A stretch of 64,000 nucleotides of DNA, taken from positions 48,347-112,346 of the forward strand of contig JAMOSB010000012.1 in assembly GCA_027068485.1 (NCBI GenBank), read 5' to 3'. Source of the stretch: Sulfurovum sp. Its GTDB lineage: Bacteria; Campylobacterota; Campylobacteria; Campylobacterales; Sulfurovaceae. The translations under genes were made by a program, and so were the position numbers. Positions 22,272-40,546 of this stretch are shown here, in pieces (the first letter of the stretch is position 1; every line of letters starts with the position of its first letter). The notes under the pieces were generated by a model, which was not told the origin of the DNA, did no database searches, and was given only the letters and a program-made list of their open reading frames with translations.

Positions 22272-22289
22272 TCTTCTTCCTTTATCTTA

Positions 22290-25028: not shown

Positions 25029-25029
25029 C

Positions 25030-25941
25030 CTAAAAATACCCCTCTATCTTTTTGCGTTCCATCGCTCCCTCACTCTCCTTGTCGATAAGTCGCCCCTCTC
25101 GCTCACTACTCGTAGAGAGGAGCATCTCTTGGATAATCTCAGGGAGGGTGGAGGCGGTGGAGGCGATGGCTCCTGTGAGTGGATAGCACCCTAGCGTACG
25201 AAACCGTACCATCTCTTTGGTAGCAGTTTTGCGTAGTGCCTCAGGGACACGGTCATCATCGACAAGGATCTTTGTCCCCTCATAGGCTACCACCTCTCGC
25301 TCTTTGGCAAAGTAGAGTGAGGGGATCTCAATAGATTCGAGATAGATATACTGCCAGATATCTAGCTCTGTCCAGTTGCTCAAAGGGAAGACGCGTACCG
25401 ACTCCCCCTTGTTGATTGAGGTATTGTAGAGACTCCACAGCTCGGGGCGTTGGTTTTTGGGATCCCATCGGTGGTGCTGATCTCTAAACGAGAAGATACG
25501 CTCCTTAGCACGGCTCTTCTCCTCATCACGCCTAGCACCTCCGATGATCGCATCATACCCCCCCGCATCGAGGGCTTGCTTGAGTGCCTCAGTCTTCATC
25601 ACCTCCGTATGGACTCTACTCCCATGGGTGAAGGGGCTGATATCCATCGCAATCCCCTTAGGGTTGGTGTGTACTACCAGATCGAGTCCCAACTCTCTCG
25701 CACGCCGATCACGAAAGGCGATCATCTCATGAAACTTCCAGAGCGTATCGACATGGAGAAACTTCAAGGGAGGCTTAGCAGGAGCAAAGGCTTTCATCGC
25801 GAGGTGGAGCATCACAGAGCTATCTTTGCCCACACTATACATCATCACAGGATTCTCAAAGACCGCTACCACCTCACGGAGGATATGGATCGACTCCGCT
25901 TCAAGCTGTTTGAGATGGGTCAGTCGCTCTTGGGTTAGCAT
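25030..25941 (-). CDS. cysD: Sulfate adenylyltransferase subunit 2.
   Basis: [15 protein letters not shown]..., [14 protein letters not shown] (PP-loop SxGxDS), and a C-terminal KKIEGYF. Confidence 0.9.
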
Positions 25942-25994: not shown

Positions 25995-27041
25995 TTATCC
26001 CTCTGCTACCATCTGCTTATAGCGCTCAAAGGCGGGGTACTTGGTGAGTCTACCCTCTCGGTCATCGACGAGTCCATAGCCCGTAGCGATGAGTTGATGC
26101 CAGTAGATTCGCTCCACTTTGCCACTCTCACGGGCGATGGTGTGGTAGGTACCCATATAGCGTGCGTAGTCTAGGGGGCTGACACACTCTCGCTCGGAGG
26201 TGGGGGCGTAGGGGGCGGTGTTGGAGAGGGGCCAGTTGACCTCGGTGATGTAGAGGTGTTGGGTAGTCTTGGGGGAGAGTCTCATGAGTGCATAGAGCAT
26301 ATCGATCTTGGTACGGGTGTCAAAAATCCCCATCTGTTTATTGGTCGGAGCCCCGCGTCGATCGACATAGAGTAGTGCGCAGAAGCGATCATAGCGGAGG
26401 TTAAAACCATTGAAGAGGGTGCGAATAGTGTAGTGGTACTCAAAGTCAATCACCGAAGAGCCTACCAACTTTAGCTTGGGGTAGTCACGATCTCGTAGTG
26501 TTGCAATCTGCTCATACCACCCCAGATACTCCTCCATCGAGAAGAAGCCCCACTTGGTACGGTTGATGGCGTGACCAATCTGATACTCCGTGACAAACGG
26601 ACTAAACTTCTTAAAGATCTCTGCGACATCTCGTTGGAGTAGGTCACTATCTTCGATATGTTCGCGATCTTGGATAATCGAGAGTAAAATCTGCTTATCT
26701 GCTCCAAAACTCTGGGCAAAGGCGACCACCGCATCGATACGATCCATCTGCCATAGGGGCATCCGAATCAGAAGGTGCTTCACCCCAAGCTCCTCAATCA
26801 ACCCAACCTGTGCCTCTCCCTTGTCAATATCGACCCCCATACCATAAAACGCCTCCCCCTCGATCGCCTCCCCCTTAACCCATCGCATCATAAGCATCCC
26901 AAGCGGGAAAAAGATCATCGTAAGTAGCAGAAGGGGCAGATAACTCCAGCGATGCTTTGTTCGCATCTGTTGTTTATAGACTCGGTCTTTGATAGGATAG
27001 GGCTGATCAGAGTAACCATCCCAGATAAATGGTGCTTTCAT
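25995..27041 (-). CDS. Membrane-anchored hypothetical protein with a glycoside-hydrolase-like (TIM-barrel, clan GH-A-like) domain.
   Basis: One TM helix (YLPLLLLTMIFFPLGMLMM). YITEVNWP resembles the nucleophile-Glu strand of GH-A enzymes. The assignment is weak and made by eye only. Confidence 0.45.
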   Translation of the reverse strand: MKAPFIWDGYSDQPYPIKDRVYKQQMRTKHRWSYLPLLLLTMIFFPLGMLMMRWVKGEAIEGEAFYGMGVDIDKGEAQVGLIEELGVKHLLIRMPLWQMDRIDAVVAFAQSFGADKQILLSIIQDREHIEDSDLLQRDVAEIFKKFSPFVTEYQIGHAINRTKWGFFSMEEYLGWYEQIATLRDRDYPKLKLVGSSVIDFEYHYTIRTLFNGFNLRYDRFCALLYVDRRGAPTNKQMGIFDTRTKIDMLYALMRLSPKTTQHLYITEVNWPLSNTAPYAPTSERECVSPLDYARYMGTYHTIARESGKVERIYWHQLIATGYGLVDDREGRLTKYPAFERYKQMVAEG

Positions 27042-27108: not shown

Positions 27109-28137
27109 TTACCCCAATGCCCTCAACCGCTTCCATATCTTATACTTACGGATGAGGTTGAGTGGCTTTCGCTTGATGGTATGATGGCGTAAGAAATCCA
27201 AGCAGGCCTCTACCACCCGTTGGCTAGAGCGTCCATCCGCATAGGGGTGGGTCTGTGCGATAAAGCCCTCTAGTGCCTCCATCACCTTGGGAGGTCGAGT
27301 CAGTGCCTCTCGAATCGCCCCCTCGATGGCGTGGGCATCGGTGATATTGATCATATAGGGTTGGGGTTGGTTGTTGTTGAGTGTGACCACGGGCTTGTGC
27401 TGTAGGACAAACTCTGTGATGGCAGAGGTGGTATCGGAGAGCATCACATCGGCACGCGTAAAGAGCGGAATCAACTCTGTGGTGTCATAGAAGTGAAAAT
27501 ACTCCCCCTCCATCGCCAAAAACTGCTCCACAATCTCCCGCTCCATCTTGGGGTGTAACACCGCGATAAACTCCCACTCCCCTAGCCTTGCGAGTCGGGC
27601 GATCTCTGCAACTGCGGTGGGGTTCTTGGCTAGACTAAGACGCGTGGTGAAGGTGGAGCTGATCATCACCACTTTACGCGGTGTAGAGGGTAGCGATCTA
27701 GGCAGGGGGAAGAGTGGATCGACCTTACTCCACCCCGTCTCGACCACCTCAAAGTGGCGGTGCTTGGCTTGTAGTGCCTTAAAGGGTATGGTGGTACTAG
27801 GGCCTTGGGTACAGTAGAGATCAAAAAAGCCTCGGATATTGAAATGCCCCTTCGCATTGGAGCGTTTGCCCACACTAAACCCATGAAAAATCTGCACCTT
27901 AATCCCACTAAAGAAGTGCGGGACGACATTGGTTGCAACCAGTACAACATCGGGCTGATAGTGCTTCACCTCTGCAACCGTATGAAGCACCCTAGCGGTT
28001 TGATCGAGATGGGCTTTGGTCGCAGGCTCATCACAAAACCAATGCACCACTAGTCCGCGTCGCTCTATCTCCACTTGGAGGGGGCGACAGATAGGGATAC
28101 TGTAGGGTTGGGAGAGGTAGAGGAGAAATTTGGTCAT
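27109..28137 (-). CDS. CDP-glycerol glycerophosphotransferase (TagB/TagF)-like protein.
   Basis: ADVMLSDTTSAITEFVLQHKPVVTL resembles the conserved TagF-family C-terminal motif. Confidence 0.65.
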   Translation of the reverse strand: MTKFLLYLSQPYSIPICRPLQVEIERRGLVVHWFCDEPATKAHLDQTARVLHTVAEVKHYQPDVVLVATNVVPHFFSGIKVQIFHGFSVGKRSNAKGHFNIRGFFDLYCTQGPSTTIPFKALQAKHRHFEVVETGWSKVDPLFPLPRSLPSTPRKVVMISSTFTTRLSLAKNPTAVAEIARLARLGEWEFIAVLHPKMEREIVEQFLAMEGEYFHFYDTTELIPLFTRADVMLSDTTSAITEFVLQHKPVVTLNNNQPQPYMINITDAHAIEGAIREALTRPPKVMEALEGFIAQTHPYADGRSSQRVVEACLDFLRHHTIKRKPLNLIRKYKIWKRLRALG

Positions 28138-28149
28138 CTCTCACCTCCC

Positions 28150-28743
28150 CTAGAGCATATTGCTAGTGATAGCATTATCATCATGGAAAGTATCCCACCC
28201 CTTAACCACCTCTTGCCACGCTCCATAACGATAGCTCAGATAGGCTTCACTCTCCTGAGGGATGAGATAGGATTTGCCATCAAAGGTGTGTCGCTTGAGG
28301 TGCTGATAAAAGTGTGCAGGGACAGATTTTTTCTTCTGCCCCACCTGCCAAAAGTACTCCCCCTCCTGCTCAAACTTGATAAAGATATCGAGTGCTACCT
28401 CCCCACGGATAAAGTGAAACTTACGGTTGCGTATTTTGATGATGCGTTTGATCCCCTTTTTAAACGGGGCATCATCTCGCTCAAACTCCTTAAACCAGAC
28501 CATATAGCCTAGCTTACGGATCTCTCCCACTGCATCAAGTAGGGCATCATAGTAGGCTTCGGTGAGGGAGATATCCATATCGTTATCCCACGGAAGTAGA
28601 CGATTTTCGCGTATGACCCCAAGGAGTGTCCCCCCCTCTAGCCAATACTCAATCCCTTTGTGATCAAGTAGATCTGTAACGCGTCGTAGCATCGTCAAGG
28701 CGATTGTGCCATTTTTCCCCTCAAGGGTGTATTTGCCTGCCAT
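28150..28743 (-). CDS. LicD-family phosphotransferase (phosphocholine/polyol-phosphate transferase family).
   Basis: YWLEGGTLLGVIRENRLLPWDNDMDISL (LicD DxD motif). Confidence 0.8.
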   Translation of the reverse strand: MAGKYTLEGKNGTIALTMLRRVTDLLDHKGIEYWLEGGTLLGVIRENRLLPWDNDMDISLTEAYYDALLDAVGEIRKLGYMVWFKEFERDDAPFKKGIKRIIKIRNRKFHFIRGEVALDIFIKFEQEGEYFWQVGQKKKSVPAHFYQHLKRHTFDGKSYLIPQESEAYLSYRYGAWQEVVKGWDTFHDDNAITSNML

Positions 28744-28744
28744 A

Positions 28745-29485
28745 TTAGCCTTTCAATTGTTTCAATCGTTTTTTACGGGAGAGGTAGCGTTGTTGCTTCT
28801 CCAGATAGCCTTGTAGTAAGCCCCAAAGCTCCTCCACACGCTCCCCTGAGTGCTTCGCGTAGAGGGTGACTAGCGTGTAGTTATCCTCACGGTTGGAGGT
28901 CAACTTCGCGAGGCTCTTCATACGCAACGCACTATCAAGGCTCAAAAACTCCATACGATTGAGATCAATCAACGAGAAGTGATAGCCTCCCTCAAGTAGT
29001 TTGACCAAGATATTGCCTGGGGAGTAGTCGACATGGTAGACCCCTTTGGTGTGCAGGTCATAGGTAAAGGCGACAAACGCCTCTAGTATCGCCTCACGCC
29101 CCTCAAACGCAGGATCCTTCAAGACCGCTCGTATCTCAAAATCATACGCAAAGAGTCCACTAATATAGTAACTCTCCCCAAACAGAAAGCGGGAGGGGTA
29201 CTCATGGTAGCCTATCGGGGTCGGGGTATTGACCCCTAGTGTGACAAGACGCAATCCATTCTCATAAGAGCGTTTCGCCTTGGAGGGGCGAAAGAAGCGG
29301 TAGATGAGTTGGTTGAGACGGTGGGGTATCTTAAAGGACTTCACTACATAGGTCTGCTCTTGGTGGGTGACCACCTTGAGGGTGTTGCGTTTGTGAAAGA
29401 GTGTCTCATTGCCCTCTTGGGCAAAATAGTGCTGTATATTGGCGACAAATGCCTCATCACGAGGGTTAGCGACTTCATATCCCAT
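28745..29485 (-). CDS. Lipopolysaccharide kinase family protein (Kdo/WaaP/InaA-like).
   Basis: GVYHVDYSPGNILV catalytic-loop-like motif and LIDLNRMEF. Size and layout fit PF06293. Confidence 0.7.
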   Translation of the reverse strand: MGYEVANPRDEAFVANIQHYFAQEGNETLFHKRNTLKVVTHQEQTYVVKSFKIPHRLNQLIYRFFRPSKAKRSYENGLRLVTLGVNTPTPIGYHEYPSRFLFGESYYISGLFAYDFEIRAVLKDPAFEGREAILEAFVAFTYDLHTKGVYHVDYSPGNILVKLLEGGYHFSLIDLNRMEFLSLDSALRMKSLAKLTSNREDNYTLVTLYAKHSGERVEELWGLLQGYLEKQQRYLSRKKRLKQLKG

Positions 29486-30543
29486 TATGGCTCCTCTAGT
29501 AGGGTGACAATACGCTCAGAGACCTGCCCATCGACCACCCCACAGATCGCTTGGGTGTAGGCGGTGCGTATGGCGTGATAGCGTTCAGGGTATTGGAGGT
29601 TTGCCTTGACCATGGTGACCATCTGGGCATAACTCTGGGCATTGTCCCCAATCTTACGGTAGCTCTCTATCCCCTGATCGAGACGGTTGAAGAGCTTTTT
29701 TGGGTTGAGGATATAGCTCCATCGGAGCTTCAAAAAGCGATTGAGAATGACAGGTTTATCCAGTGCCGTAAACTCAAAAATCGCTGAACTCTCATCGGAG
29801 ATCATCACATCACACAGATGCAAAAAAGGTACCAAGGAGTACTCACTACTCTCACACACCACACAGTTGGGGTAACTCGCCCAGTGCCTAAAGCGTGCTT
29901 GCTGTTTGGCGTAGCGTTTGCGGTGAAGGCTGAGATAGTGCGGTTTGATAATGATATTGCACGCGTTAAAGTCCTGAGGAAAATCCATCGCCATCTTCTC
30001 GATAGAGGAGGGGTAAAAGGTGGGAGCGTAGAGAATCGTGGGCTTGGAGGGGTCGAGGTGGTACTTCTCTTGATAGTGGGTTTGTTCTGCCTCAGAGAAG
30101 TGTACAACCGCATCGAGCTTAGAGAAGCCCACCTTATGGAGCTTATGGGCAAATGCAGGATAGGCGTGACGCAAGGAGCTATCACGATACTCCCCCTCTA
30201 CAAGGACGATATCAAACTCCTCCAACGCACGGGCATAGTTACAGTGTTTGGTTCCTACCCCATGATCCATAAAGAGTGTCGTCGCAGAGATCTGAGCGAT
30301 AGACTCAAAGAAGTTGGCAAAGAAGATTGCATCTACCGTAGAGTCAAAGAGTTCTGACTCCTCCCATCCATAGTCTAGCCCCTCTCTCTGGGCTATCTCC
30401 TCCATCAGCACACTGTTTTGTTGGGTGCTAAGGATATAGCGTACCTGATCCCCCCGCTCCTCTAGCACCCTACCAATTGGTAAGAAGTGTGGAAAGTAGT
30501 AGGGGTAGGCGATATAAAATAGTACCGTGAGGGGCTTAGACAT
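29485..30543 (-). CDS. CDP-glycerol glycerophosphotransferase (TagF)-like protein.
   Basis: CDVMISDESSAIFEFTALDKPVIL motif. Start taken at ATG 30543 (MSKPLTVLFY), which gives an 8-nt overlap with the upstream gene. Confidence 0.75.
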   Translation of the reverse strand: MSKPLTVLFYIAYPYYFPHFLPIGRVLEERGDQVRYILSTQQNSVLMEEIAQREGLDYGWEESELFDSTVDAIFFANFFESIAQISATTLFMDHGVGTKHCNYARALEEFDIVLVEGEYRDSSLRHAYPAFAHKLHKVGFSKLDAVVHFSEAEQTHYQEKYHLDPSKPTILYAPTFYPSSIEKMAMDFPQDFNACNIIIKPHYLSLHRKRYAKQQARFRHWASYPNCVVCESSEYSLVPFLHLCDVMISDESSAIFEFTALDKPVILNRFLKLRWSYILNPKKLFNRLDQGIESYRKIGDNAQSYAQMVTMVKANLQYPERYHAIRTAYTQAICGVVDGQVSERIVTLLEEP

Positions 30544-31810
30544 GAGGACTCCTTGGGGTCGTCGGCTCAGGGGTACCATACTCTATAGAGAGCAGATACA
30601 TCACCATCACACTATAGCCATAAAATGGGATAAAGAACTTACTCGTAAAGAGTTCTGAGAGGCTAAAGAGTGTCACAATCGTCGTCACAATCAACACCAC
30701 AAAGGGAGCGGAGTGACTCGCTAGGGCAATTCGAAGCTGAGTAGAGAGGATCCAAAGCAACAACACAAGCCCCACCACACCAAACTGCATAAACATAAAC
30801 AGATACATATTGTGCGGATTGAACTGTCCTGAGCCATCACCTAGACACTGCTTAAAGAGCTGTTTGGCTTCGGGCTTACCTATGAGGCGTTGGAGTTCGA
30901 GGATACCATCACCTGAGCCGACCCCCAAGAGTGGATTGGCACGCCCAATCTGATAGGCGTAGTACCAAAACTCAAACCGACAGGTCAAGGAGCGTCGCTT
31001 GGTGGTATCTTGCTCTAAGACCTGAGCCTCAAGATCCATCGTCTTAATCACCTTGATTGTTGAGTCGACCTGATGCTTCACCTGAGGGAGAGTACCATAC
31101 GCAAGCAGTGCGAAGAGTACCAACCCACCAATCATCCCCACAACCCCACGCCACGAGAGCCTAAAGTGATAGAGTATTACAATCGCCGTAGCAATAAAGA
31201 GGTTGATATAGCCCATCCGTGAACCACTCACCTCAAGGGTATAGACCATCAATAGTGCAAGCAGTACCATCACCCCTGTATGCCATGAGACAAGGGGACG
31301 GGTGGCGATACGGTCTAAGAAGTAACTATACGCAAAGATAAGCATCCCCGCAAGATAGACACGGTGGACATAGGGTGAGGTGTCGATAGTATAGGGGATA
31401 TCGAGTAGACCCAAGGCGATCAAGCCTGTCATAATACCCGTCGTAATCAACGCCAACAGCATCGACCAGAGGTAGTAAGGGATAAACTTTCGCTGGTACA
31501 TCGAGAGGGCTATAGGGACGATCAGATAGAGTAGTGGGCGTTCAAGTATCTTACGTCCTGCGTAGAAGTTCTCTGTCCAGAGTAACCCCACCACAAACAT
31601 CCCCACAAAGAGCAGAAAAGTCCAGACAAGTTTATGAGATCTAATCCGCTCCCACTTTGCATGGAAATCTCCTGTCACAAGCCACAAAACCCCTAGCAGT
31701 ACCAAAATCGCACGGCTCGCCTTATGGTCAAAAAAGAGTACAAATCCAAAGAGGATAATCAGCAGATTAGCAAAGAGATAAAGCTTTGGCTTCACACGAG
31801 TAGCATACAT
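30536..31810 (-). CDS. O-antigen ligase / Wzy_C-family polytopic membrane protein (WaaL-like).
   Basis: About 10-12 TM helices, with a periplasmic loop containing GSGDG...FNPHNMYLFMFMQFG (Wzy_C-type H motif). Confidence 0.75.
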   Translation of the reverse strand: MYATRVKPKLYLFANLLIILFGFVLFFDHKASRAILVLLGVLWLVTGDFHAKWERIRSHKLVWTFLLFVGMFVVGLLWTENFYAGRKILERPLLYLIVPIALSMYQRKFIPYYLWSMLLALITTGIMTGLIALGLLDIPYTIDTSPYVHRVYLAGMLIFAYSYFLDRIATRPLVSWHTGVMVLLALLMVYTLEVSGSRMGYINLFIATAIVILYHFRLSWRGVVGMIGGLVLFALLAYGTLPQVKHQVDSTIKVIKTMDLEAQVLEQDTTKRRSLTCRFEFWYYAYQIGRANPLLGVGSGDGILELQRLIGKPEAKQLFKQCLGDGSGQFNPHNMYLFMFMQFGVVGLVLLLWILSTQLRIALASHSAPFVVLIVTTIVTLFSLSELFTSKFFIPFYGYSVMVMYLLSIEYGTPEPTTPRSPHV

Positions 31811-31816
31811 ACCTCT

Positions 31817-33526
31817 CTACCCCTCAAGCCCAAAGTTTCTCTTAAAGGCATCACTCTGTGCCACCTCACTATAACGACCTATCTCCACAATCTCCCCTTG
31901 ACTCATCACCACCACCTTATCGGCATGCTTGATGGTGTTGAGGCGGTGGGCGATGACAATGGAGGTCTTTGAGGCGATGATATGGAGAAGACTCTCTTGG
32001 ATCATATTTTCGGTATCGGTATCGAGTGCAGAGGTCGCTTCATCCAAAACAAAAAGTGAGGCATCTTTATAGAGTGCCCGTGCGAGGGCAAGGCGTTGGC
32101 GTTGTCCGCCTGAGAGCTTCTTCCCATTCTCCCCTACCTTGTAGGCATCCTTCTGACTAAACCCATCGATAAACTCACAATGAGCCAATGCAACAGCTTG
32201 AGCATAGCGTGCCTCATCGTAGGGGAGTCCATAGAGGATATTCTCTTGGATGGTGGTGTTGAATGTCCCTGCACTTTGATTGACATAGGAGATGTGATCA
32301 CGAATACTCGGTGCCATACGGGTGGTGATATCGATACCGTTGATAAGTATCTGCCCTGAGGTGGGTGTGCGAAACCCAAAGAGCAGGGTCAAGATGGAGC
32401 TTTTGCCCGCTCCTGTCTTGCCCACAAAGGCAAAGGTCTCATTCTCCTCTATGGTAAAGCTAAGATTTTTCAAGATCTCTTTATCTCCTATCGTAAGTGA
32501 AACCGCTCTAAATTCGATCTTCTTAATCGCCTCATCGAGTGGTGGGAGGGTGTGGTTCTCCTGTTTCATCTTGAGAATATTCTCTGTCCGCTTCACATAG
32601 GTGTCGAGGATATTGAGTACCAGTGCATTTTTGGTGACGACTTTAATCGGTGCATAGAGCATCATCAGAGCAGTCAAAAAAGCAAAGAAATCCCCCACGG
32701 TCATCCCATCTTCTATCACCAGTGTCCCCCCAAAGTAGACCACCGACGCAATCGCCAAGGAGACGAAAAACTCCATCGCAGGCGAGGTCGCCTCTTTGTA
32801 GCGAGAGAGCTTGAGCTGAAACTCTTTGTAGTACTCTAGTACCGTATCAAACCGCTTCTGCTCATACTCGGTGCGGTTGTAGACCTTGACAATATCGATA
32901 TGGTTGAAGGTCTCATTGATACTATCGGTAAGTCCTGAGATCATCTTCTCCGCACTCAAGACATGCTGTTTGACCCGCTTGCCTAGATAGCGTACAGGGA
33001 GTATCACAATCGACGCAAAGAGAATCGCAAAGAGTGAGAGCTTCCAGTTGAGAAAGAGTATCATCCCCACCAGTGCAATAATCGTCATCACACTCACAAG
33101 GTAGTTGGGGAGGGTACGGGCGATGACATTACGCATATTGAGTACCGTCTGGATGATATGGGCATTGAGATCCCCTACGGTCTTGTTCTGTATCGTAGCA
33201 AACTCCGCATTGATCGCCCGACCAAACATCTCAGAGCGGATCGTCTTGGTCACCCCTATCCCGATACTTGTAGCCAGATAGATACTCAAAAAGCGGAAGA
33301 TCCCCCGTGTCACAAAGAGGATAATAATCGCAAAAGGGATGAGTGTCAACATCGCTTCATTCTTATCCACAAAGATATTATTGAGGATAGGCTTCATCAT
33401 ATAGGCACCCAGTGCCGAGGTGATCGCCACCATCACCATCGAAAAGACCGCCCAGATGATACGCAGTTTATAGGTTTTTATATAGGGGAGTAGGAACTTT
33501 ACTCCATACCATTTTTCATTTTTCAT
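31817..33526 (-). CDS. MsbA/PglK(Wzk)-family ABC exporter (fused TMD-NBD half transporter); lipid A or lipid-linked-glycan flippase.
   Basis: Six-TM domain, Walker A GKTGAGKSS, signature LSGGQRQRLALARAL, and Walker B LFVLDEATSALD. Confidence 0.9.
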   Translation of the reverse strand: MKNEKWYGVKFLLPYIKTYKLRIIWAVFSMVMVAITSALGAYMMKPILNNIFVDKNEAMLTLIPFAIIILFVTRGIFRFLSIYLATSIGIGVTKTIRSEMFGRAINAEFATIQNKTVGDLNAHIIQTVLNMRNVIARTLPNYLVSVMTIIALVGMILFLNWKLSLFAILFASIVILPVRYLGKRVKQHVLSAEKMISGLTDSINETFNHIDIVKVYNRTEYEQKRFDTVLEYYKEFQLKLSRYKEATSPAMEFFVSLAIASVVYFGGTLVIEDGMTVGDFFAFLTALMMLYAPIKVVTKNALVLNILDTYVKRTENILKMKQENHTLPPLDEAIKKIEFRAVSLTIGDKEILKNLSFTIEENETFAFVGKTGAGKSSILTLLFGFRTPTSGQILINGIDITTRMAPSIRDHISYVNQSAGTFNTTIQENILYGLPYDEARYAQAVALAHCEFIDGFSQKDAYKVGENGKKLSGGQRQRLALARALYKDASLFVLDEATSALDTDTENMIQESLLHIIASKTSIVIAHRLNTIKHADKVVVMSQGEIVEIGRYSEVAQSDAFKRNFGLEG

Positions 33527-33541: not shown

Positions 33542-34261
33542 TTAGCGTAAGGCACTCAACTGCTCTATCGCCCGATCGATATCCTCAAAGTCGATACCAT
33601 TAAGTTGTGCTAAATCATACTCCCACCACGCCAAAGCAAGGAGTTTCTCAATCTGCTGAGGATCAAAACGATACCGTATCACCTTGGCAGGTACCCCCCC
33701 TACAATCGCGTAGGGTGGGACATCTTTGGTCACAACAGACCCCGCAGCCACAATCGCCCCATCCCCTATCGTTACACCTGCCTTGACAAAGACCAGAGAA
33801 CCGATCCAGACATCATTGCCTATCACCGCCCCCTCAGGTGTATCAAAGGGCTTTTGAGCAAACCCATCACAATAGGGTTTATACTCAAAATGCTCTGCGA
33901 TATTGTACTGTATCGAGGAGCTACTGAGCCAATCAATGGGGTGATCCACCGCTCCTATCTCACACTTCTTGCCAATAGAGCAGTACCGCCCCACACGCGT
34001 GGTGTAGAAGAGTGTGGTACCGTTATTAATATAGCTAAATGCCCCGATCTTCACCTTGGCTCGGATATCAACATTGGCATAGAGGGTCACAGGGGCTTCA
34101 AGCTGTGCCTTTTTATGGAGATAGACCGAGGGAGCAATACGGTTATTGTTTTGTGATAAGTCACGCTTCTTACTCCCCACTGCACACGGGGTGATACCCC
34201 TTCGTACGACACGGCAGAGCTCTTTTTTGATCTTAGTGAGCATAGAGTTCTCTAAGTGCAT
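33542..34261 (-). CDS. Hexapeptide-repeat acetyltransferase of the XAT (CatB/Vat-like) class.
   Basis: Left-handed beta-helix repeats ([31 protein letters not shown]) and the DHPIDWLSS motif typical of XAT enzymes. Confidence 0.8.
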
Positions 34262-35303
34262 CCACTAATACATCAACATAGGCGCGATCCATCTCACCCA
34301 TATGAGACACCCTAAAGATTGTCTCTTGAAGTGCCCCGCCATTGGGACAGACCATCACCTTGGCATCACGCTCCAACGCATGGACAATCTCACTCGCTCC
34401 CCACCCATCAGTTGGCGTAAGTGTTGTCATAGCATTGGGCATAAAGGGGGTATAGGCTCGGAGTGGTAACCCCTTGATCTGCTCTCTGAAGTAGGTCGCC
34501 ATCTCTTTGGCTCGTTGGATCGTCGCCTCAACACCCCCCTCTCGCTCGATCTGCTCCAAGCGTGCAAGAAGCTGAAGGAGTATCGTCACCGCAGGGGTGT
34601 AGGGGGTCTGTCCCCGCTCCCCATCTTTGAGGTAGTTTTTGAAGTTGAAGTAGTGACTCTGCACCTCTCCTATCTTGGCGATCGCTTTGGGGTTGAGGAC
34701 AACCATCGTCAGCCCAGGAGGGAGTGCCAAGCCCTTTTGACTACTCAAGATCACCGTATCGATATGGTGCTGTTGCATATCGATAGGATCGGTGACAAAC
34801 ATACTAATCGCATCGACGATATTGAGGAGATTATGCTTGTGACAAAATGCTCCAATCGCTGGGAGATCATAGAGATGCCCCACACTGGTCTCATGGGCAT
34901 TGAGCACCAACGCAGTGTACTCCTCTCCCCTCACCCATCTCTCAATATCACTGAGGTTTCCCTCTGTAACAGGCAGGACATCATGGGGGACATGGTAGCT
35001 TTCACACAGATCAACAAAACGCGCACCAAATCCCCCACCATTGACCACCAACGCATGATCCTCCGCACCGAGTAGGTTCATCACCACCGACTCCATTCCC
35101 GCTGTCCCTGAAGCGGTCAAGAAGATCACCCGACTCCCCGTAGGAGCATTGAGCATCTTAAGCAGATACGCCTCACAGCGGTGTACCACTTGGGAAAATT
35201 CACTATTTCTAAAGTAAGGTGTCTGCTTCGCACCTATTGCGAGTATCTCCTGTGACATCTTCACAGGGCCTGGGGTAAAGATGGCGTAATCTTCATATAT
35301 CAT
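34233..35303 (-). CDS. Class V PLP aminotransferase (AGXT/PhnW/serine-pyruvate aminotransferase-like).
   Basis: [14 protein letters not shown]-terminus, [10 protein letters not shown], and [11 protein letters not shown] containing the PLP lysine. Confidence 0.85.
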
Positions 35304-36666
35304 TGGGATGCTCCTTATTGTATTGGACGACGATTTTATTGAGTTCTAGCATATCGTAGTGGGTGAGTCGTGCGGACTCTATCTCCCCTCGTTGGATCAA
35401 GGTCACAAACTCTGCAATCATATAGCGAAGTCCATCCCCCTCAAACTCATAAGAGAAGTGATACTCTTTGTGTGGATCTTCAAACTTGAAGTAGAACTCT
35501 TTGGTAAGCCACCACGGAGCGGGGATATAGAGATACCCTTTGGTACCAGAGATCACCGCATTGCCATCGGACTTCATCTCTATCCCCACAGTAGCCAGAC
35601 CAATCACCCCTTTTTTGTGTGTGGTGATGACACGGTTGCTACTATCATACCCCTGCGTCTTCTGATCAAAAAAGGTGATACTCTTGCTCTCTCCTGCGAT
35701 CTTCTGCACCAACAAAGAGGGGTAGGAGATGAGCAGATTTGTCGCACCATTTTGAATATACCGCTTAGGAAAGCCTCGCTCTTTGTAGAGGGAGGTGAAG
35801 GTACTTCTCACCTCTTTTATCTCCCCTATCACCCCACTCTTAAGCTCGGACAACATGGTATTAAAGGCAGGGGCAAAGGCGGTTTTGAGTGCCATAAGAA
35901 GCAGTCGATTCTGCTCTTTTGCCAACACAAAAAGCTCCTCAGCCTGCCCCTCCTCTAAGACCAGAGGATTTTCACATAGAACATGTTTTTTCTGCCTAAG
36001 TGCTAACTTGATCTGTGCGTAGTGGTGTTTGATATCGGTTGCGATATAGACCGCATCGATAGAGGAGTCTAAGAGATCAGCGTAGGAGTCGTAGAGTTCA
36101 GAGAGGAGAAACTCCTCTTGAAACTTACGCCGTGCTTTGGGCTTCTGGGAGTAGAGGGCGACCGCTTTGGCACTAGAGACAAAGGAGAGCTCCCGCAAAA
36201 ACCGTCTACTATCTCCATTGGCACCCACAATCCCAATCTTAATCGTATCGATCTGCTCATTACGTAGCTTGGTACTAGAGATCCCCTCGGTACGAGGGAG
36301 ATAGACCACTTGGGTATAGGCGTTGAGATAGTCAAACTTCCCTACCCAGTCATCCCCAATCACAAACTTATCGATACCATACTTCTGCATATCTTCGACT
36401 TTCTGTTTGGCGTGGGTTTCGAGTATCACCTCATCGACAAAATCGAGCCGTCGCACCGCCTCTAGTCGCTCCTCTTGACTCTGAGAGACATGCAACTTTC
36501 CACGCGATCGGTCATAATCCTCACTGGTCACCCCTACAATGAGATAGTCCCCTTGGGCTTTGGCTCGTGTGAGGATATTGATATGTCCGATATGGAGCAT
36601 ATCGTAGGTACCATAGGTGATGATCTTGGTTATCTTTTTTTGCTTCTTACTGCTTGCCAAAGTCAT
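35293..36666 (-). CDS. Fusion of a TagD-type (glycerol-3-phosphate-like) cytidylyltransferase to a Gfo/Idh/MocA oxidoreductase.
   Basis: N-terminus ITYGTYDMLHIGHINILTRAKAQGDYLIVGVTSEDY (HxGH nucleotidyltransferase). Then IGIVGANGDSRRFL...VYIATDIKHHYAQIKLALRQKKHVLCENP (Rossmann plus the EKP-like motif of Gfo/Idh/MocA). The start is uncertain: ATG 36666, 36696 or 36753. Confidence 0.8.
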   Translation of the reverse strand: MTLASSKKQKKITKIITYGTYDMLHIGHINILTRAKAQGDYLIVGVTSEDYDRSRGKLHVSQSQEERLEAVRRLDFVDEVILETHAKQKVEDMQKYGIDKFVIGDDWVGKFDYLNAYTQVVYLPRTEGISSTKLRNEQIDTIKIGIVGANGDSRRFLRELSFVSSAKAVALYSQKPKARRKFQEEFLLSELYDSYADLLDSSIDAVYIATDIKHHYAQIKLALRQKKHVLCENPLVLEEGQAEELFVLAKEQNRLLLMALKTAFAPAFNTMLSELKSGVIGEIKEVRSTFTSLYKERGFPKRYIQNGATNLLISYPSLLVQKIAGESKSITFFDQKTQGYDSSNRVITTHKKGVIGLATVGIEMKSDGNAVISGTKGYLYIPAPWWLTKEFYFKFEDPHKEYHFSYEFEGDGLRYMIAEFVTLIQRGEIESARLTHYDMLELNKIVVQYNKEHPNDI

Positions 36667-37378
36667 CTCCTTGCTGGGTGATACACTCACTCTCATCCCA
36701 TGAAACATCAGGGGTCTGCCACGCACCATAGATCGCGGTGAGATAGGCTTCATAGTTTTTGGGAATGGTACACTTCAGGTGATAAAAATCGATCTCAATC
36801 AGCCCCCCCTCCAAGAGATCCTTAGGGATACTCTGGACACGATTTTCTGCCATCCAATAGAGTGACCCCTCCTTCTCATACTTAAAGAAGATATCCATGG
36901 AGTTGTACCCCGCTTTGCGTTTGCGTAGTAGTCCACTGGTTCGGCTATTGCGTATCTCAGCCAATCGGTAGTAGTAGGGGTCTGTGAAGTCTATACTGTC
37001 GACAAAGACACTGAGTGAGGGATTCTTTTGGAGTTTGAGTTTGCGGTTTTTGATACTCCGATAAAAAGAGACCACCCACCCGTGAAGCCCCTCTGCTCGT
37101 AGGTCTTTGAGTACCTCTTGTATCTTGTGATAGTCACACTCATCTACCAACGAGATATCGACATCATCATCCCACGGGATAAAGCCCTTCTCTCGTACGG
37201 CTCCCAAGAGCGTCCCAAAATCCAAATAGTAGGCGATATCGTGTGCCTTAAGTACCGCGATACTCTTCTCTAGTATCGCTAAGGAGTTGGTGACATTGTG
37301 TGGATATTTAAACTGCTTTTGCTCTTTGCGTTGTGCTCTTCGTTTGGCTTTGGATAGACTCAATACTCTCATAAACAC
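36647..37378 (-). CDS. LicD-family phosphotransferase.
   Basis: YYLDFGTLLGAVREKGFIPWDDDVDISL. Confidence 0.8.
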   Translation of the reverse strand: MFMRVLSLSKAKRRAQRKEQKQFKYPHNVTNSLAILEKSIAVLKAHDIAYYLDFGTLLGAVREKGFIPWDDDVDISLVDECDYHKIQEVLKDLRAEGLHGWVVSFYRSIKNRKLKLQKNPSLSVFVDSIDFTDPYYYRLAEIRNSRTSGLLRKRKAGYNSMDIFFKYEKEGSLYWMAENRVQSIPKDLLEGGLIEIDFYHLKCTIPKNYEAYLTAIYGAWQTPDVSWDESECITQQGDDFGKQ

Positions 37379-38019
37379 TCTCCTTGTAGTTGTGTTGGAC
37401 TCTCATCTTCTCTCCAGGTACGGTTGGGGATCTGCCACTCGCCATAGAGCTGACTCAAGTACGCCTCATACGCCACAGGTACACTACACGAGATACCACA
37501 AAAATCAATCTGCTTCACCCCCTGCTCTAGCAGTGAGGCATCGATACGGTTGATGCGACCATCTGCAAGCCAGTAGAGTCCCCCCTCAAAACTATATTTA
37601 AAGAAGATATCCATCGTCGTATTGCCCCGCCCAAAGATCCAAAACTTATTGGTACGAAGCTTAGCAATCTGAAAATCCTCATCCGATGCAAAGGAGATAT
37701 GCTCATGAAAAATAGGGTTGTGGTTTTTGCGACGCTTCTCTCTAGAGCTTCGGAAGGTAAAGAGATAGGTGCGGTAGCGATAGCGTTTCTGTATCTCTCT
37801 TAGCACCTCTTGAGCTTTGGGGTAGTCGGAGGGGTTGAGCAGGCTGATATCGAGATCATCATCCCATGGGATCAATGCCCCCTCACGCATTGCACCCAAA
37901 AGTGTCCCAAAATCCAAATAGTAGGCGATATGGTGTGCGTCTAGTGTCGTCACCACCGCCTGAAGCATCTTCAGTGCCTCCACTACATTCTCTTGATGTA
38001 TAAATCGTTTATCTGCCAC
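37369..38019 (-). CDS. LicD-family phosphotransferase (paralog of the previous gene).
   Basis: YYLDFGTLLGAMREGALIPWDDDLDISL. 10-nt overlap with the downstream LicD gene. Confidence 0.8.
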   Translation of the reverse strand: MADKRFIHQENVVEALKMLQAVVTTLDAHHIAYYLDFGTLLGAMREGALIPWDDDLDISLLNPSDYPKAQEVLREIQKRYRYRTYLFTFRSSREKRRKNHNPIFHEHISFASDEDFQIAKLRTNKFWIFGRGNTTMDIFFKYSFEGGLYWLADGRINRIDASLLEQGVKQIDFCGISCSVPVAYEAYLSQLYGEWQIPNRTWREDESPTQLQGECL

Positions 38020-38077: not shown

Positions 38078-38674
38078 TTAGAAGTGGTGCTTGAGTCCTA
38101 CCATCACCTTATCACTATCGAAGTAGAGCAGTAGTGGCGTCTCTCGCTTATATGCCCAATACCCAGAGGCAAACCCGACCAACGCCCCAATGAGGACATC
38201 ACTCTGCCAGTGGGCTTGGGCTTTGAGCCGTCCTCCCATCTGATGGAGAGGAAATGCCCAGAGCAGGTGTACCCACGGTGACTCCTCTTGATACTCCAAA
38301 ATATAGGGGGTCACCAGTGCAGTCATCCCCGAGACATGCCCACTAAAGAAGCTCTTACCTCCACTAAACCACTCTGAGGAGCTATCGGAGTCACGAGGGC
38401 GTAGGCGACCTGTCCCACGCTTAGCGATCTCAGCAATCAACTGACTCATAATCCCCGCATCCAGACTCTTCCAAGAGGTTCGTCCAAAGCGACTCTCTGT
38501 CCCCTCATAGAGAGCCGTTGCGACAATCCCTACCGTAGCGATTTTGGGAATATCATAGTGTGCCCCCCAGAAACCACTCTCATCGAGCTTCACTTTGTGG
38601 TCAAACTCCCATGAGAGGAGCAGACTCACGCCCAACACCATCACACCGATCACTCGACCCATCATCTTTAGCAT
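38078..38674 (-). CDS. PAP2-family lipid phosphatase (LpxE/LpxF-like candidate lipid A phosphatase).
   Basis: KRGTGRLRPRD, SFFSGHVS and QAHWQSDVLIGALVG match the tripartite PAP2 motif. GAGGAAG RBS before ATG 38674. Confidence 0.75.
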   Translation of the reverse strand: MLKMMGRVIGVMVLGVSLLLSWEFDHKVKLDESGFWGAHYDIPKIATVGIVATALYEGTESRFGRTSWKSLDAGIMSQLIAEIAKRGTGRLRPRDSDSSSEWFSGGKSFFSGHVSGMTALVTPYILEYQEESPWVHLLWAFPLHQMGGRLKAQAHWQSDVLIGALVGFASGYWAYKRETPLLLYFDSDKVMVGLKHHF

Positions 38675-38685
38675 ACTATCTTCCT

Positions 38686-39585
38686 CTATTTCCATCGTTT
38701 GTGCATCCAAAACCACTGCTTGGGGTAGGTACGCATCACCTGCTCCATCACCTTGGCTTGGGCTTGTGTCATCACTATCAAGTCTCGCTCTTGATCTTCA
38801 CTCTTGATGGGGGGGAGTGGCTCATAGATCGTCACATGGTAGTTGATATAGTCATCGGTATGGATAAACGCAGGGATCAGTGCCACCCCAAACTTGCGTG
38901 AGAGTATCGACGCGAGTGGGGTATGGGTCGCAGGATAGCCAAAGAGCTTCACTCCGATGGAGAACTTCTTGCGTATCGCCTGATCGATCAAGATCCCTAC
39001 GGCTTTGCCTTGAGAGAGTGCCTTAAGACACCCCTTCATCGCCCCTTTTTTATAGACCATCTCGACATTGAAGCGTTCGCGGTTGGCTTTGAGTACCTCA
39101 TCCATCACCGCACTATCGAGCTTCCGTCCTACCCCCACAAGGGTGAGATCAAACTTCAGAGCAATCGCTTGGGAGAGCAGCTCCCAGTTGCCTTGATGCC
39201 CCGTCACAAAGATGATCTTCTGCCCCTGATCCTGATAGGCACGGACAATCTCCTCCCCCTCAAAGGTCACATTCTCTAGTACCTCTTGGGGAGTCAACCG
39301 CTCCCGCTTGATAATCCCAAAGAGGGTATCGATGAGATTGACAAACGCCTCTACCCCTATCGTTCGCTTCTGCTTGATCGTCAAGGTATGTGCAAATGCC
39401 AAATCAAGATTGTGGTGGATAATCGCCCGATGTTTGGCACTCACCCCATACGCAATCCACGCCAATCCACGCATCAATCCACGCACCATCCACGCAGGCA
39501 CTATCCACAACACCACCCCAAAGAGACGGTAGATCCCCAAGTAGAGCCAATCAATCACCCAAAAGCTCCTTGGCAATGGTGACAA
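38686..39585 (-). CDS. lpxL: Lipid A biosynthesis late (lauroyl/myristoyl) acyltransferase family.
   Basis: NLDLAF..., FVTGHQGNWELL (HX4D/E-like acyltransferase motif region), and GILIDQA. Confidence 0.75.
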   Translation of the reverse strand: MSPLPRSFWVIDWLYLGIYRLFGVVLWIVPAWMVRGLMRGLAWIAYGVSAKHRAIIHHNLDLAFAHTLTIKQKRTIGVEAFVNLIDTLFGIIKRERLTPQEVLENVTFEGEEIVRAYQDQGQKIIFVTGHQGNWELLSQAIALKFDLTLVGVGRKLDSAVMDEVLKANRERFNVEMVYKKGAMKGCLKALSQGKAVGILIDQAIRKKFSIGVKLFGYPATHTPLASILSRKFGVALIPAFIHTDDYINYHVTIYEPLPPIKSEDQERDLIVMTQAQAKVMEQVMRTYPKQWFWMHKRWK

Positions 39586-40546
39586 TCTCAGCTACAGCAA
39601 TCTCCTCAATAGAGAAGTCTTGCTTATTGAGCTTGTAGGGGTTGACCCTACTAGAGGAGTTGACCACGCGGTTGATGGGGGTTTCGTAGACACGGTTGAT
39701 CGGTGTGGGACCAAAGATTGTGATGGAGGGGATATTGAGTCCCCACGCCATATGCGTAGGTCCCGTATCGTTACCAATCAGCAGATCAGCGTGAGCGATC
39801 AGGGCTTTGAGGGCATTGAGATTGAGTGGGGGGAGTGCTGTAGCGTAGCGACTCTGTTGCGCGATCCACACTGCACGCTCCCGCTCCGTCTCACTCCCCC
39901 ACACCACAAGGATATTGGCACGCAGTGCATCTGCAATCTGAGCAAACTTCTCTTTGGGGTAGTTGCGACTCTCCCAAGTCGAGCCAATCACGAAGATCAC
40001 CATAGGGGTATCCTCACGCAGATAGGGGACAATCTCAGGAGCCTCCTCATAGAACAAAAAGGGCTTCTTAGCTTGAATCATCGCGGGGGTAATCTCCACA
40101 CCAAGAGGCTCAGAGAGGACTTTGGCATTGCGGTCAATGGTATTGGCATCATAGGCGATCGTCACTTTTTGGGTGTAGAGGTAGGAGGCGATGCCCTCTC
40201 GGATAGAGGATTTGGAGAAGCCTGCTCTGCGTTTACCAAGGAGCATGGTGGTAAGTGCCGATTTGATTAGTCCTTGGGCATCGATCACCAGATCGTAGTG
40301 ATTTTGGGCATAGGCTCTGACCTGTCGAACCTGTGCAACGAGTGCTTTTTTATCTTTTTTGATCGCTTTGAGGTTGAGTGGTAGGATATGGTCAATATCG
40401 GGATTGCCCTCTAGCACCTTGGCAAACCCCGCCTCAACAACCCAATCGATCTCTAGCTCTGGATTGGCACGCTTGAGATACTGAAGTGCGACCATTGCAT
40501 GGATGATATCCCCCATGGCTGAGAGTTTGACAATCGCGACTTTCAT
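39551..40546 (-). CDS. waaC: Lipopolysaccharide heptosyltransferase I.
   Basis: MKVAIVKLSAMGDIIHAMVALQYLK N-terminus and the GNDTGPTHMA motif of GT9. Confidence 0.85.
   Translation of the reverse strand: MKVAIVKLSAMGDIIHAMVALQYLKRANPELEIDWVVEAGFAKVLEGNPDIDHILPLNLKAIKKDKKALVAQVRQVRAYAQNHYDLVIDAQGLIKSALTTMLLGKRRAGFSKSSIREGIASYLYTQKVTIAYDANTIDRNAKVLSEPLGVEITPAMIQAKKPFLFYEEAPEIVPYLREDTPMVIFVIGSTWESRNYPKEKFAQIADALRANILVVWGSETERERAVWIAQQSRYATALPPLNLNALKALIAHADLLIGNDTGPTHMAWGLNIPSITIFGPTPINRVYETPINRVVNSSSRVNPYKLNKQDFSIEEIAVAEIVTIAKELLGD

Follow-up and report, generated by a model that had tools for sequence, protein, structure and literature searches.

In a 64,000-nucleotide stretch of Sulfurovum sp. 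DNA (GenBank assembly GCA_027068485.1, contig JAMOSB010000012.1, positions 48,347 to 112,346; hereafter, the window), we analyzed a gene whose product fuses a TagD-like CTP:alcohol-phosphate cytidylyltransferase (CTase) domain to a Gfo/Idh/MocA-fold domain (FUS), together with the class V pyridoxal phosphate-dependent aminotransferase (AT) encoded directly downstream of it. The two genes lie in a lipopolysaccharide (LPS) core operon, among enzymes that decorate glycans from CDP-activated alcohol phosphates. Comparison across related loci supports the conclusion that FUS and AT form one functional module feeding CDP-alcohol phosphotransferases, and the cassette that they form with LicD-family proteins probably attaches a small phospho-amino-alcohol to surface sugars. 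The reading we prefer is a route from AT through the CTase to LicD- or TagF-like transferases, in which a CDP-amino-alcohol would serve for surface decoration; on the comparative analysis, we regard this as an evenly balanced call. We hold somewhat more tentatively, at a little below even balance, that the cassette makes an undescribed donor, CDP-serinol or the isomeric CDP-aminopropanediol, and installs a new zwitterionic group on LPS, O-antigens, and capsules.

The reading frame of FUS extends over positions 35293-36753 on the minus strand, and its likely start is the ATG at 36666, with AAGGAG immediately 5' of it, giving a gene at 35293..36666 that encodes 457 aa. The junction sequence places this start 20 nt inside the 3' end of the upstream LicD gene. 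A first-pass annotation of the window had read this single frame as an HxGH-type, TagD-like CTase joined to a Gfo/Idh/MocA domain, and Pfam, NCBIfam, a match to PDB 1coz, and an AlphaFold2 model compared using Foldseek all agreed with that reading. Pfam assigned CTP_transf_like to residues 45-165 of the open reading frame (E 3e-20) and GFO_IDH_MocA to residues 171-286 (E 1.9e-19; 70.9 bits against a cutoff of 24), followed by a C-terminal GFO domain. In the numbering of the 457-aa protein, the CTase domain occupies aa 13-137 (nt 36256-36630, minus strand) and the Gfo/Idh/MocA-fold domain aa ~141-452 (nt 35311-36246, minus strand). Checking the architecture by profile search and structure prediction, as the annotation had advised, recovered both domains: the AlphaFold2 model, built with 99 homologues in the alignment, reached a pLDDT of 88.9 and a pTM of 0.81, and its predicted C-terminal two-thirds superpose on Gfo/Idh/MocA structures, best on 3e9m (target-normalised TM-score 0.88, rmsd 2.6 Å), with KijD10 and dihydrodiol dehydrogenase close behind. 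Pfam and Foldseek thus both identify the two-domain fold of this family (Rossmann plus alpha/beta C-domain). The same annotation had called the fusion itself unusual, which proved mistaken: each of the best 120 database matches (57-100% identity) has the two-domain architecture, and an exhaustive search of 1.84 billion representatives returned 225 clusters (50% identity) that match the fusion at E<=1e-30. The nearest relatives come from Sulfurovum and Campylobacterales metagenome-assembled genomes (MAGs), at 68-69% identity.

The CTase domain carries both nucleotide-binding motifs of TagD/Gct (HxGH and RTxGISTT) intact, as HIGH at 36583-36594 (LHIGH, aa 24-28) and RTEGISST at 36271-36294 (aa 125-132). 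It is 49% identical to Bacillus subtilis TagD (PDB 1coz; 61/124, E 1e-35), and its best solved matches score 125 bits for TagD versus 82 bits for ethanolamine-phosphate cytidylyltransferase (ECT), whose human form ranks third among solved matches (E 5e-22), and 48 bits for CCT. The basic residues Lys44 and Lys46, which have functional roles in TagD, align to R55 and K57 of FUS, both invariant among 99 homologues. Against the TagD equivalog model TIGR01518, FUS scored 122.4 bits, below the cutoff of 165.4.

In the Gfo/Idh/MocA-fold domain, the family EKP motif has become ENP (aa 232-234, nt 35965..35973, minus strand), with Asn233 in place of the catalytic Lys. In HMMER alignments, the five best solved homologues (including 3e9m, 3evn, 2o48, and KijD10) all have EKP except for an engineered K102E mutant of KijD10; because every solved outgroup has the Lys, we consider the ENP state derived. 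The glycine-rich loop is degenerate as well, reading GANGDS (aa 148-153, nt 36208..36225, minus strand) where canonical fusions in the three-class alignment described below have GxGRIA; the second Gly of GxGxxA is gone, and the sequence does not match the dinucleotide-binding loop GxGxx[G/A]. HMMER alignments to 2o48 and KijD10, together with the class comparison, identify NGATNLLISYP (aa 306-316, nt 35719..35751, minus strand) as a remnant of GGx3[D/E]x3[Y/H], in which Leu replaces the acidic residue and Tyr315 is kept. Across the ENP clade, the SPHxxH motif is altered to TDxxxH, and position 416 has changed from Glu to Met. Of the catalytic motifs of the family, FUS keeps Glu232, Pro234, and Tyr315. 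With its catalytic Lys and acidic residue gone and its cofactor signature partly eroded, the Gfo/Idh/MocA domain of the AT-linked clade is, by its sequence, predicted not to be a canonical NAD(P) dehydrogenase, and its role is most likely non-redox, as a scaffold or in ligand binding.

We aligned 162 fusions and defined classes by the residue at the Lys position. The EKP class (n=18) is fully canonical, with GxGRIA, an S-R pair characteristic of NADP binding, SPHxxH, EKP, and GGxxxE...Y. The EIP class (n=43, from rumen and gut metagenomes) keeps GSGRIA and has EIP and GGAMTEH. The ENP class (n=87), to which the window protein belongs, has the consensus GLGRDT versus GxGRIA in the other two classes, along with TDxxxH, ENP, Leu for the acidic residue, and Met at position 416, where the EKP and EIP classes conserve Glu; Asn233 is 100% conserved in its 87 sequences, as Lys is in the EKP class. 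Counting only loci with enough flanking sequence, AT directly adjoins FUS in 74/76 ENP-class loci and in none of the EKP (0/12) or EIP (0/23) loci. After dereplication at 90% identity, AT is present in 40/42 ENP versus 0/12 EKP loci (Fisher p = 2.7e-10, a value that compares clades whose loci are not independent events). In minor AT-linked groups, S, T, H, L, or G replaces the Lys, and with the N of the ENP class included, no AT-linked relative keeps the EKP lysine. More broadly, K occupies this position in 17 of 48 two-domain representatives (50% identity), the others having S, T, P, A, N, and so on, and in 22 of the 29 Gfo-only relatives in which the motif was found.

Two ENP-class fusions from Arcobacteraceae lack 24 residues of the Rossmann beta2/alphaC region yet retain AT; these proteins (L005:1831-3066 and L008:403-1641) are ~423 aa long, have the loop GLGDDNQDT, and are followed immediately downstream by AT. 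The ENP domain nevertheless has class-specific invariant residues (D152, N233, S317, Y340, and M416), and since it is also well folded in the model, we conclude that it is under selection for something. As a relaxed-selection comparison, the ratio of Rossmann to CTase divergence was 2.14 for ENP, 1.49 for EKP, and 4.87 for EIP. The degenerate domain derives from a reductase, one that AT-less relatives retain intact, and the AT-less EKP-class relatives probably make a CDP-polyol. EIP-class fusions (loci L083-L157, e.g., L093:6001-7326) often lie near LicD, TagF-like, or XAT-like genes. EKP-type fusions, or the Gfo/Idh/MocA domain alone, also occur fused to GDPD and a calcineurin-like phosphoesterase (Metallophos) in proteins of up to 1240 aa (P0250, P0253, P0254, P0257, P0359, P0373, and P0393).

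AT (34233..35303, minus strand, 356 aa) has an ATG start 7 nt after AAGGAG and overlaps the FUS stop by 11 nt. Its assignment to class V (Aminotran_5, E 2e-22) and its Schiff-base lysine, K190 in SSQK (nt 34734-34745), bear out the first-pass annotation, which had remarked that a class V rather than a DegT-type enzyme was unexpected here; the class V call holds, and there is a precedent in the 2-aminoethylphosphonate (AEP) transaminases (AEPTs) that are coupled to cytidylyltransferases (PMC6697681). In NCBIfam, AT matches PhnW-AepZ (TIGR03301) best, at 168.9 bits against a cutoff of 360.8, and TIGR02326 follows at 115.6 bits against 400.8, so that AT falls short of an AEPT equivalog assignment; weak matches to SerC reach 59 bits. 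Among solved structures, AT matches 3f0h (1e-85), PhnW (1m32, 3.5e-24), and the PntC-AEPT fusion Tde1415 (6pd1, 1e-16). Judging from these matches, its nearest characterised relatives are the AEP transaminases. In relatives, AT is more conserved than FUS (65-71% versus 57-61% identity to the window proteins).

Gene neighborhoods were compared by tblastn and clustering of open reading frames in 80 loci from genomes, 80 from metagenomes (seeded with fusions of the EKP type), and a few single look-ups, a sample that is mostly metagenomic and phylogenetically clustered. When the fusion and its neighbors were sought elsewhere, as the first-pass annotation had advised, the unit that recurred across 161 related loci was FUS, AT, and then usually a LicD-family protein of ~257 aa; the third gene of the annotated trio, encoding an XAT acetyltransferase, did not belong to it. 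Among ENP-class loci with large context, LicD lies <=6 kb from FUS in 29/33. FUS–AT adjacency is shared by Campylobacterota, Gammaproteobacteria, Bacteroidota, and Clostridia, whose acceptor glycans differ; the cassette itself occurs in Campylobacterota, in Gammaproteobacteria that are sulfur oxidisers or symbionts, in Pasteurellaceae, and in part of the Bacteroidota and Clostridia. The Solemya pervernicosa gill symbiont, whose genome is complete, has a lone FUS-AT-LicD cassette among the housekeeping genes for SMC, ZipA, SurA, and BolA, indicating that its substrates come from central metabolism and that three genes should suffice to reach the decorated glycan. The FUS and AT genes of Canicola haemoglobinophilus belong to a polysaccharide locus of the Wzx/Wzy type, which has two TagF-like transferases but lacks LicD; the product is therefore usable by either transferase family. 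A Psychrobacter sp. HD31 locus, by comparison, contains LicD-like, FUS (EKP), TagF-like, and GDPD genes. We found no glycan structures to compare for C. haemoglobinophilus, Psychrobacter sp. HD31, or the Solemya symbiont. A search for FUS-AT fusion proteins of the Rosetta-stone kind returned none; longer relatives were fused to GDPD and Metallophos instead. The annotation's proposal that the trio makes a CDP-activated amino polyol thus survives in part: the FUS-AT module (40/42) with LicD nearby (29/33) supports it, and the oxidation and acetylation steps that it included are not supported.

The XAT-type hexapeptide acetyltransferase gene (33542..34261, minus strand; probable start at 34243, 233 aa) overlaps the AT stop by 11-29 nt, and Hexapep matches and the CatB/Vat/XAT structures agree with the family first assigned to it. 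Its best NCBIfam match is TIGR03308, a hexapeptide transferase family from carbon-phosphorus lyase operons (138.9 bits, cutoff 201.65), followed by Vat (111.7 bits, cutoff 300) and CatB (107.5 bits, cutoff 350). Each score lies below the equivalog cutoff, and on sequence XAT would be placed only in the broader XAT-like hexapeptide group. In view of the TIGR03308 match, it is possible that XAT N-acetylates a small aminoalkyl phosphate. A window-like XAT lies within 6 kb of FUS in 1/33 ENP-class loci with large context and is missing from ~95% of FUS-AT loci. Its orthologues (62-70% identity) are found mostly in ABC-transporter capsule loci, between TagF-like genes and plain TagD, without AT. 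In L001 and L145, which are the two exceptions to AT adjacency among the 76 ENP-class loci, the order is FUS, TagF-like, XAT (64-67% identical to the window XAT), plain TagD of 141-153 aa, and TagF-like. A search seeded with XAT returned orthologues of 62-68% identity in KpsMT-like/Poly_export loci, with FUS in L165 and L168, not in L167, and AT in none. These contexts indicate that the steady partners of XAT are TagF-like enzymes rather than AT. The first-pass annotation had counted XAT as the third member of a trio; we conclude that it is an accessory tailoring enzyme recruited to the window operon, outside the conserved unit, and the comparative context favors a role as a polymer or polyol O-acetyltransferase.

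L166:1023-9575, the locus most closely related to the window operon, has XAT on the opposite side of FUS, in the order GT9, LicD, XAT, two CTP_transf_like fragments, FUS, AT, MsbA-like, LicD, and Kdo kinase; the fragments, of 77 and 79 aa, are apparently a decayed plain TagD. This locus suggests that the window arrangement is a merger of a capsule-type module with the FUS-AT module. In L165, L168, L001, and L145 (e.g., L168:3256-9332), an ENP-type FUS, one or two TagF-like genes, an XAT orthologue, and plain TagD stand side by side, and these Campylobacterota-like KpsMT/Poly_export capsules look like teichoic-acid-type polymers made from two CDP donors.

In the pathway that we propose, AT would aminate a three-carbon carbonyl phosphate from central metabolism, most likely converting dihydroxyacetone phosphate (DHAP) to serinol phosphate, a transamination known for RtxA (PMC3222319); alternatively, glyceraldehyde-3-phosphate could yield 3-amino-1,2-propanediol phosphate, mirroring the aldehyde substrate of AEPT. 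The TagD-like domain, whose family assignment is firm, would then combine CTP with the amino-alcohol phosphate to give a CDP-amino-alcohol ("CDP-serinol"). LicD- and TagF-like enzymes, again of clear family, would place the phospho-amino-alcohol on the LPS core or O-chain, and the outcome would be a zwitterionic substituent on LPS. The degenerate domain would be the relic of a reductase whose counterpart in EKP relatives would turn a carbonyl of this kind into a polyol, and loss of its reductase activity would end the competition with AT. Families, synteny, and motif losses can be read from the sequences, and it is from these that we infer the substrate, the product, and the order of steps. 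A serinol-like, amine-bearing, CDP-activated small alcohol phosphate is our leading product hypothesis. Glycerophosphate-type C3 chemistry is favored because the CTase is close to TagD and because EKP relatives are fused to, or lie near, GDPD and TagF-like proteins. Since plain TagD is present in the same locus as FUS in five cases (L001, L145, L165, L168, and L054), FUS is unlikely to be a simple duplication of CDP-glycerol synthesis, and its product would differ from CDP-glycerol. Between AT-linked and AT-less classes, the CTase domain has 55 shared conserved positions versus 2 class-specific ones; such near-identity implies the same or a very similar CTase substrate, differing, for example, in OH versus NH3+.

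Several observations weigh against this proposal. The near-identity of the CTase domains fits a common substrate, glycerol-3-phosphate (G3P) or DHAP, better than it fits different ones. ENP-class FUS occurs without AT in cis in four capsule loci (L001, L145, L165, and L168); the MAG containing L001 also has FUS-AT-LicD (L007), which makes a supply of AT in trans plausible. The EIP class lacks the Lys and yet is never found with AT (0/23), so loss of the Lys is not uniquely tied to AT. The degenerate domain is under selection and could still catalyse something. The LicD-like pneumococcal protein Gtp3 has reportedly been published (Wang et al., 2010) as a glycerol-2-phosphotransferase rather than a final transferase. 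Our literature search found no phosphoserinol substituent and no CDP-serinol, an absence that would fit novelty and would equally fit a wrong guess at the product; the same search found no paper describing a FUS-AT-LicD cassette. The identity of the amine, finally, is one that we infer from sequence and gene context.

The same end product could be reached by oxidation of CDP-glycerol, which is close to what the first-pass annotation had envisaged: the TagD-like domain would make CDP-glycerol, the Gfo/Idh/MocA domain would oxidize it at C2 to CDP-dihydroxyacetone, AT would convert this to CDP-serinol, and XAT would N-acetylate the amine, following the logic of WbpB/WbpE/WbpD. This route starts from a central metabolite and uses only genes present, the fusion would channel CDP-glycerol, and the near-identical CTase in all FUS classes fits G3P as the common substrate; moreover, the solved relative KijD10 acts on a nucleotide-linked ketone, Tyr315, Glu232, and Pro234 are kept in a domain under selection, and members of the XAT-related family from carbon-phosphorus lyase operons might acetylate aminoalkyl phosph(on)ates. 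We nevertheless consider it unlikely. In the AT-linked clade, neither the catalytic Lys nor the acidic residue survives, and the cofactor signature is incomplete, the window protein having lost the second Gly of GxGxxA as well; the Lys position varies among AT-linked lineages (N, S, T, H, L, G); and the Rossmann-deletion variants still have AT. The fusions with canonical EKP motifs are never found with AT (0/12), and no class V aminotransferase is known to us to act on a ketone linked to a nucleotide. XAT is missing from ~95% of FUS-AT loci, and its orthologues reside in AT-less capsule loci. A different way of keeping the AT–CTase–LicD/TagF logic would be to change the amine, with 3-phosphohydroxypyruvate giving phosphoserine and CDP-serine, or glycolaldehyde phosphate giving phosphoethanolamine and CDP-ethanolamine. 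CDP-threonine has reportedly been proposed for the Clostridioides difficile flagellar type A glycan, which CDP-serine would resemble. Class V includes SerC, to which AT has its weak matches of 59 bits, human ECT ranks third among the solved structures that the CTase domain matches (E 5e-22), and the extra Arg residues of FUS (DRSRGK versus NLQKQK in TagD) could bind a carboxylate; the pairing of a TagF-like protein with an amino-acid-phosphate cytidylyltransferase is also reportedly discussed for C. difficile (PMC10714395). We judge these amines decidedly unlikely, in that SerA and SerC already make phosphoserine and would render a dedicated AT redundant, glycolaldehyde phosphate does not count among the standard metabolites, the CTase scores far higher against TagD (125 bits) than against ECT (82) or CCT (48), and the family's association with GDPD and TagF suggests glycerol-type C3 alcohols.

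The plainest interpretation gives FUS no amine at all: it would be a CDP-glycerol or CDP-polyol synthase with a vestigial or regulatory domain, and AT would act outside the donor pathway, for instance to modify the acceptor or to supply an amino sugar or an amino acid. A TagD-like CTase unchanged between classes, the capsule loci in which ENP-class FUS has no AT in cis, and the known use of CDP-glycerol and CDP-ribitol by TagF-like and LicD enzymes all fit this interpretation, to which we give only a small chance. FUS–AT adjacency is near-obligate (40/42) across four bacterial groups with different acceptor glycans, the lone three-gene cassette offers AT no other partner, plain TagD beside FUS in five loci speaks against redundancy with CDP-glycerol synthesis, and the AT-less L001 shares its MAG with the FUS-AT-LicD of L007. 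A phosphonate tailoring pathway appears still less probable, and we give it a very small chance. Here AT would be an AEP transaminase, FUS would make CMP-AEP, LicD would transfer AEP, and the genes for Ppm and Ppd would lie at another place in the genome. The top NCBIfam family for AT (PhnW-AepZ), its matches to PhnW structures, and the phosphonate-operon family of the best XAT match all point in this direction, and HxGH-type CTase domains do occur in phosphonate pathways, the N-terminal domain of Fom1 (PDB 5x3d) being a weak match. Ppm, Ppd, and AEPT are, however, normally clustered (PMC6697681), and a motif search for phosphoenolpyruvate (PEP) mutase (EDKx5NS-type), made without a Ppd profile search, found none in six-frame translations of the 64-kb window and 164 loci (1.68 Mb). 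With AT also far below the AEPT cutoffs (168.9 bits against 360.8) and a CTase that is TagD-like rather than PntC/LicC-like, we rejected this pathway.

The preferred route from AT through the CTase to LicD/TagF-like enzymes follows the order of steps in Pnt tailoring, as in Treponema denticola. Tde1415, a PntC-AEPT fusion, makes AEP and then CMP-AEP (Rice et al., 2019; PMC6697681), and there, as proposed for the window, a class V aminotransferase makes an aminoalkyl phosph(on)ate that a CTase activates for surface glycans; the aminotransferase and nucleotidyltransferase are fused in Pnt and translationally coupled in the window. Unlike Pnt, FUS loci had no PEP mutase (Ppm) motif and no recognized Ppd, the CTase is of the HxGH/TagD type rather than LicC/PntC, and there is an extra Gfo/Idh/MocA-fold domain; with neither Ppm nor Ppd, the substrate would have to be a phosphate ester and not a phosphonate. 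The Lic1 cassette (LicA/B/C/D) is likewise compact, ends in LicD, and uses a CDP donor to modify LPS or teichoic acid with a zwitterionic phospho-alcohol; in contrast to it, the FUS-AT-LicD cassette has no kinase or transporter, its alcohol phosphate would arise by transamination, and its CTase belongs to the HxGH family (PF01467) and not to the LicC-type superfamily. For the reaction proposed for AT, there are precedents in RtxA's N-terminal domain from Bradyrhizobium elkanii, which forms serinol phosphate from DHAP and an amino donor (PMC3222319), and, reportedly, in Cj1437 of Campylobacter jejuni, a DHAP aminotransferase that makes serinol phosphate (PMC11800397). The likeness drawn here is one of proposed reaction. 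In those two systems, serinol phosphate is reportedly dephosphorylated and free serinol enters rhizobitoxine or glucuronic acid amidation, with no CDP activation.

Wang et al. reportedly described in 2010 (J Bacteriol 192:5506) the pneumococcal genes for CDP-2-glycerol, with Gtp1 as an oxidoreductase, Gtp2 as TagD-like, Gtp3 as LicD-like, and WchX as a transferase. The likeness of FUS to Gtp1-3 is drawn at the level of protein families. On that basis, Gtp1-3 unite the same three families for a CDP donor of the glycerol type, and EKP-class loci such as that of Psychrobacter sp. HD31 resemble a Gtp2-Gtp1 fusion flanked by LicD-like and TagF-like genes. Unlike the Gtp enzymes, those of the window are fused, the oxidoreductase lacks its catalytic residues, and an aminotransferase has been added. 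The roles of the pneumococcal Gtp1-3 genes are described elsewhere (PMC1391919, PMC5581491). CDP-ribitol synthesis by TarI/TarJ and Bcs1 also couples or fuses a redox-fold domain to a CTase and supplies TagF- and LicD-like transferases, a scheme that probably fits the EKP-class relatives; TarIJ and Bcs1, however, combine an IspD-type CTase with a medium- or short-chain dehydrogenase/reductase, whereas FUS combines an HxGH-type CTase with a Gfo/Idh/MocA domain that is degenerate in the window clade. The window trio resembles WbpB/WbpE/WbpD superficially, in combining a Gfo/Idh/MocA fold and an aminotransferase with an acetyltransferase of the left-handed beta-helix kind. It departs from it in that the dehydrogenase residues are gone, AT is class V and not DegT, XAT is XAT/CatB-like and not WbpD/PglD-like, and the trio is not conserved. 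The first-pass annotation's reliance on that precedent is undercut by the lost catalytic residues and by the relatives with canonical motifs, which are never found with AT (0/12).

In the direction of transcription, the operon encodes a GT9 heptosyltransferase (39551-40546; Glyco_transf_9), a lipid A late acyltransferase (38686-39585; Lip_A_acyltrans), a PAP2 phosphatase (38078-38716; PAP2), LicD_b (37369..38019; LicD, E 5.2e-17), and LicD_a (36647..37378; LicD, E 2.6e-19), all on the minus strand and named here for their Pfam matches. LicD_b is 43% identical to LicD_a by tblastn, and the 3' end of the LicD_a gene overlaps the FUS start. FUS, AT, and XAT come next, and because their reading frames overlap, they are translationally coupled. 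Beyond XAT, on the same strand and again with Pfam matches, lie an MsbA-like ABC exporter (31817-33526; ABC_membrane and ABC_tran), an O-antigen-ligase-family protein (30536-31810; Wzy_C), a TagF-like protein of the CDP-glycerol glycerophosphotransferase family (29485..30579; Glyphos_transf, E 5.1e-19), a Kdo/WaaP-family LPS kinase-like protein (28745..29485; Kdo, E 1.7e-7), the third phosphotransferase, LicD_c (28150..28743; LicD, E 1.2e-17), and a second, weak TagF-like or Epimerase_2-like protein (27109..28137; Epimerase_2 2.9e-9, Glyphos_transf 5.3e-5). As in Lic1, LicD transferases stand beside the donor-synthesis genes, with three LicD genes in this operon; no choline-kinase-like (LicA) gene was found among the operon genes scanned using Pfam.

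Downstream of the LPS operon, on the same strand, a 348-aa frame without a Pfam match (25995-27041, minus strand) separates the weak TagF-like gene from cysD. CysD (25030-25941) and CysN (23613-25028) are followed by two adenosine 5'-phosphosulfate (APS) kinases, one with an N-terminal DUF2061 membrane segment (22888-23613, minus strand) and a second at 22290-22946 (minus strand), and then by a 609-aa membrane protein (20442-22271, minus strand) with a Sulfatase-family domain in an LtaS/EptA-like architecture. The supply of 3'-phosphoadenosine 5'-phosphosulfate encoded in this region (20442-25941) beside LPS genes could possibly serve LPS sulfation, or the region could serve phospho-group transfer. 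A 476-aa frame on the plus strand (16588-18018) contains a cytidylyl/adenylyltransferase-like region (tblastn match at 17641-17958) and is probably an HldE-type heptose kinase/adenylyltransferase.

Charged substituents such as phosphoethanolamine, phosphocholine, and AEP govern cationic-peptide resistance, host mimicry, and immune recognition. If the proposed pathway is correct, the cassette would extend the chemistry of bacterial surface glycans by a novel CDP-activated donor and a novel charged group, and it would do so in animal-associated bacteria among others, as C. haemoglobinophilus and the bivalve symbiont carry it. Phosphoserinol would add +153.02 Da and glycerophosphate +154.00 Da; at 0.984 Da apart, the two are confusable in low-resolution mass spectrometry, and with this difference of only 0.98 Da, the substituent may have been overlooked or mis-assigned. 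A functional assignment would also correct genes now annotated "glycerol-3-phosphate cytidylyltransferase" or "Gfo/Idh/MocA oxidoreductase" in at least 225 clusters. The FUS family would further provide an evolutionary case in which a reductase domain kept its fold and gave up its catalytic residues at the very point where the pathway gained an aminotransferase.

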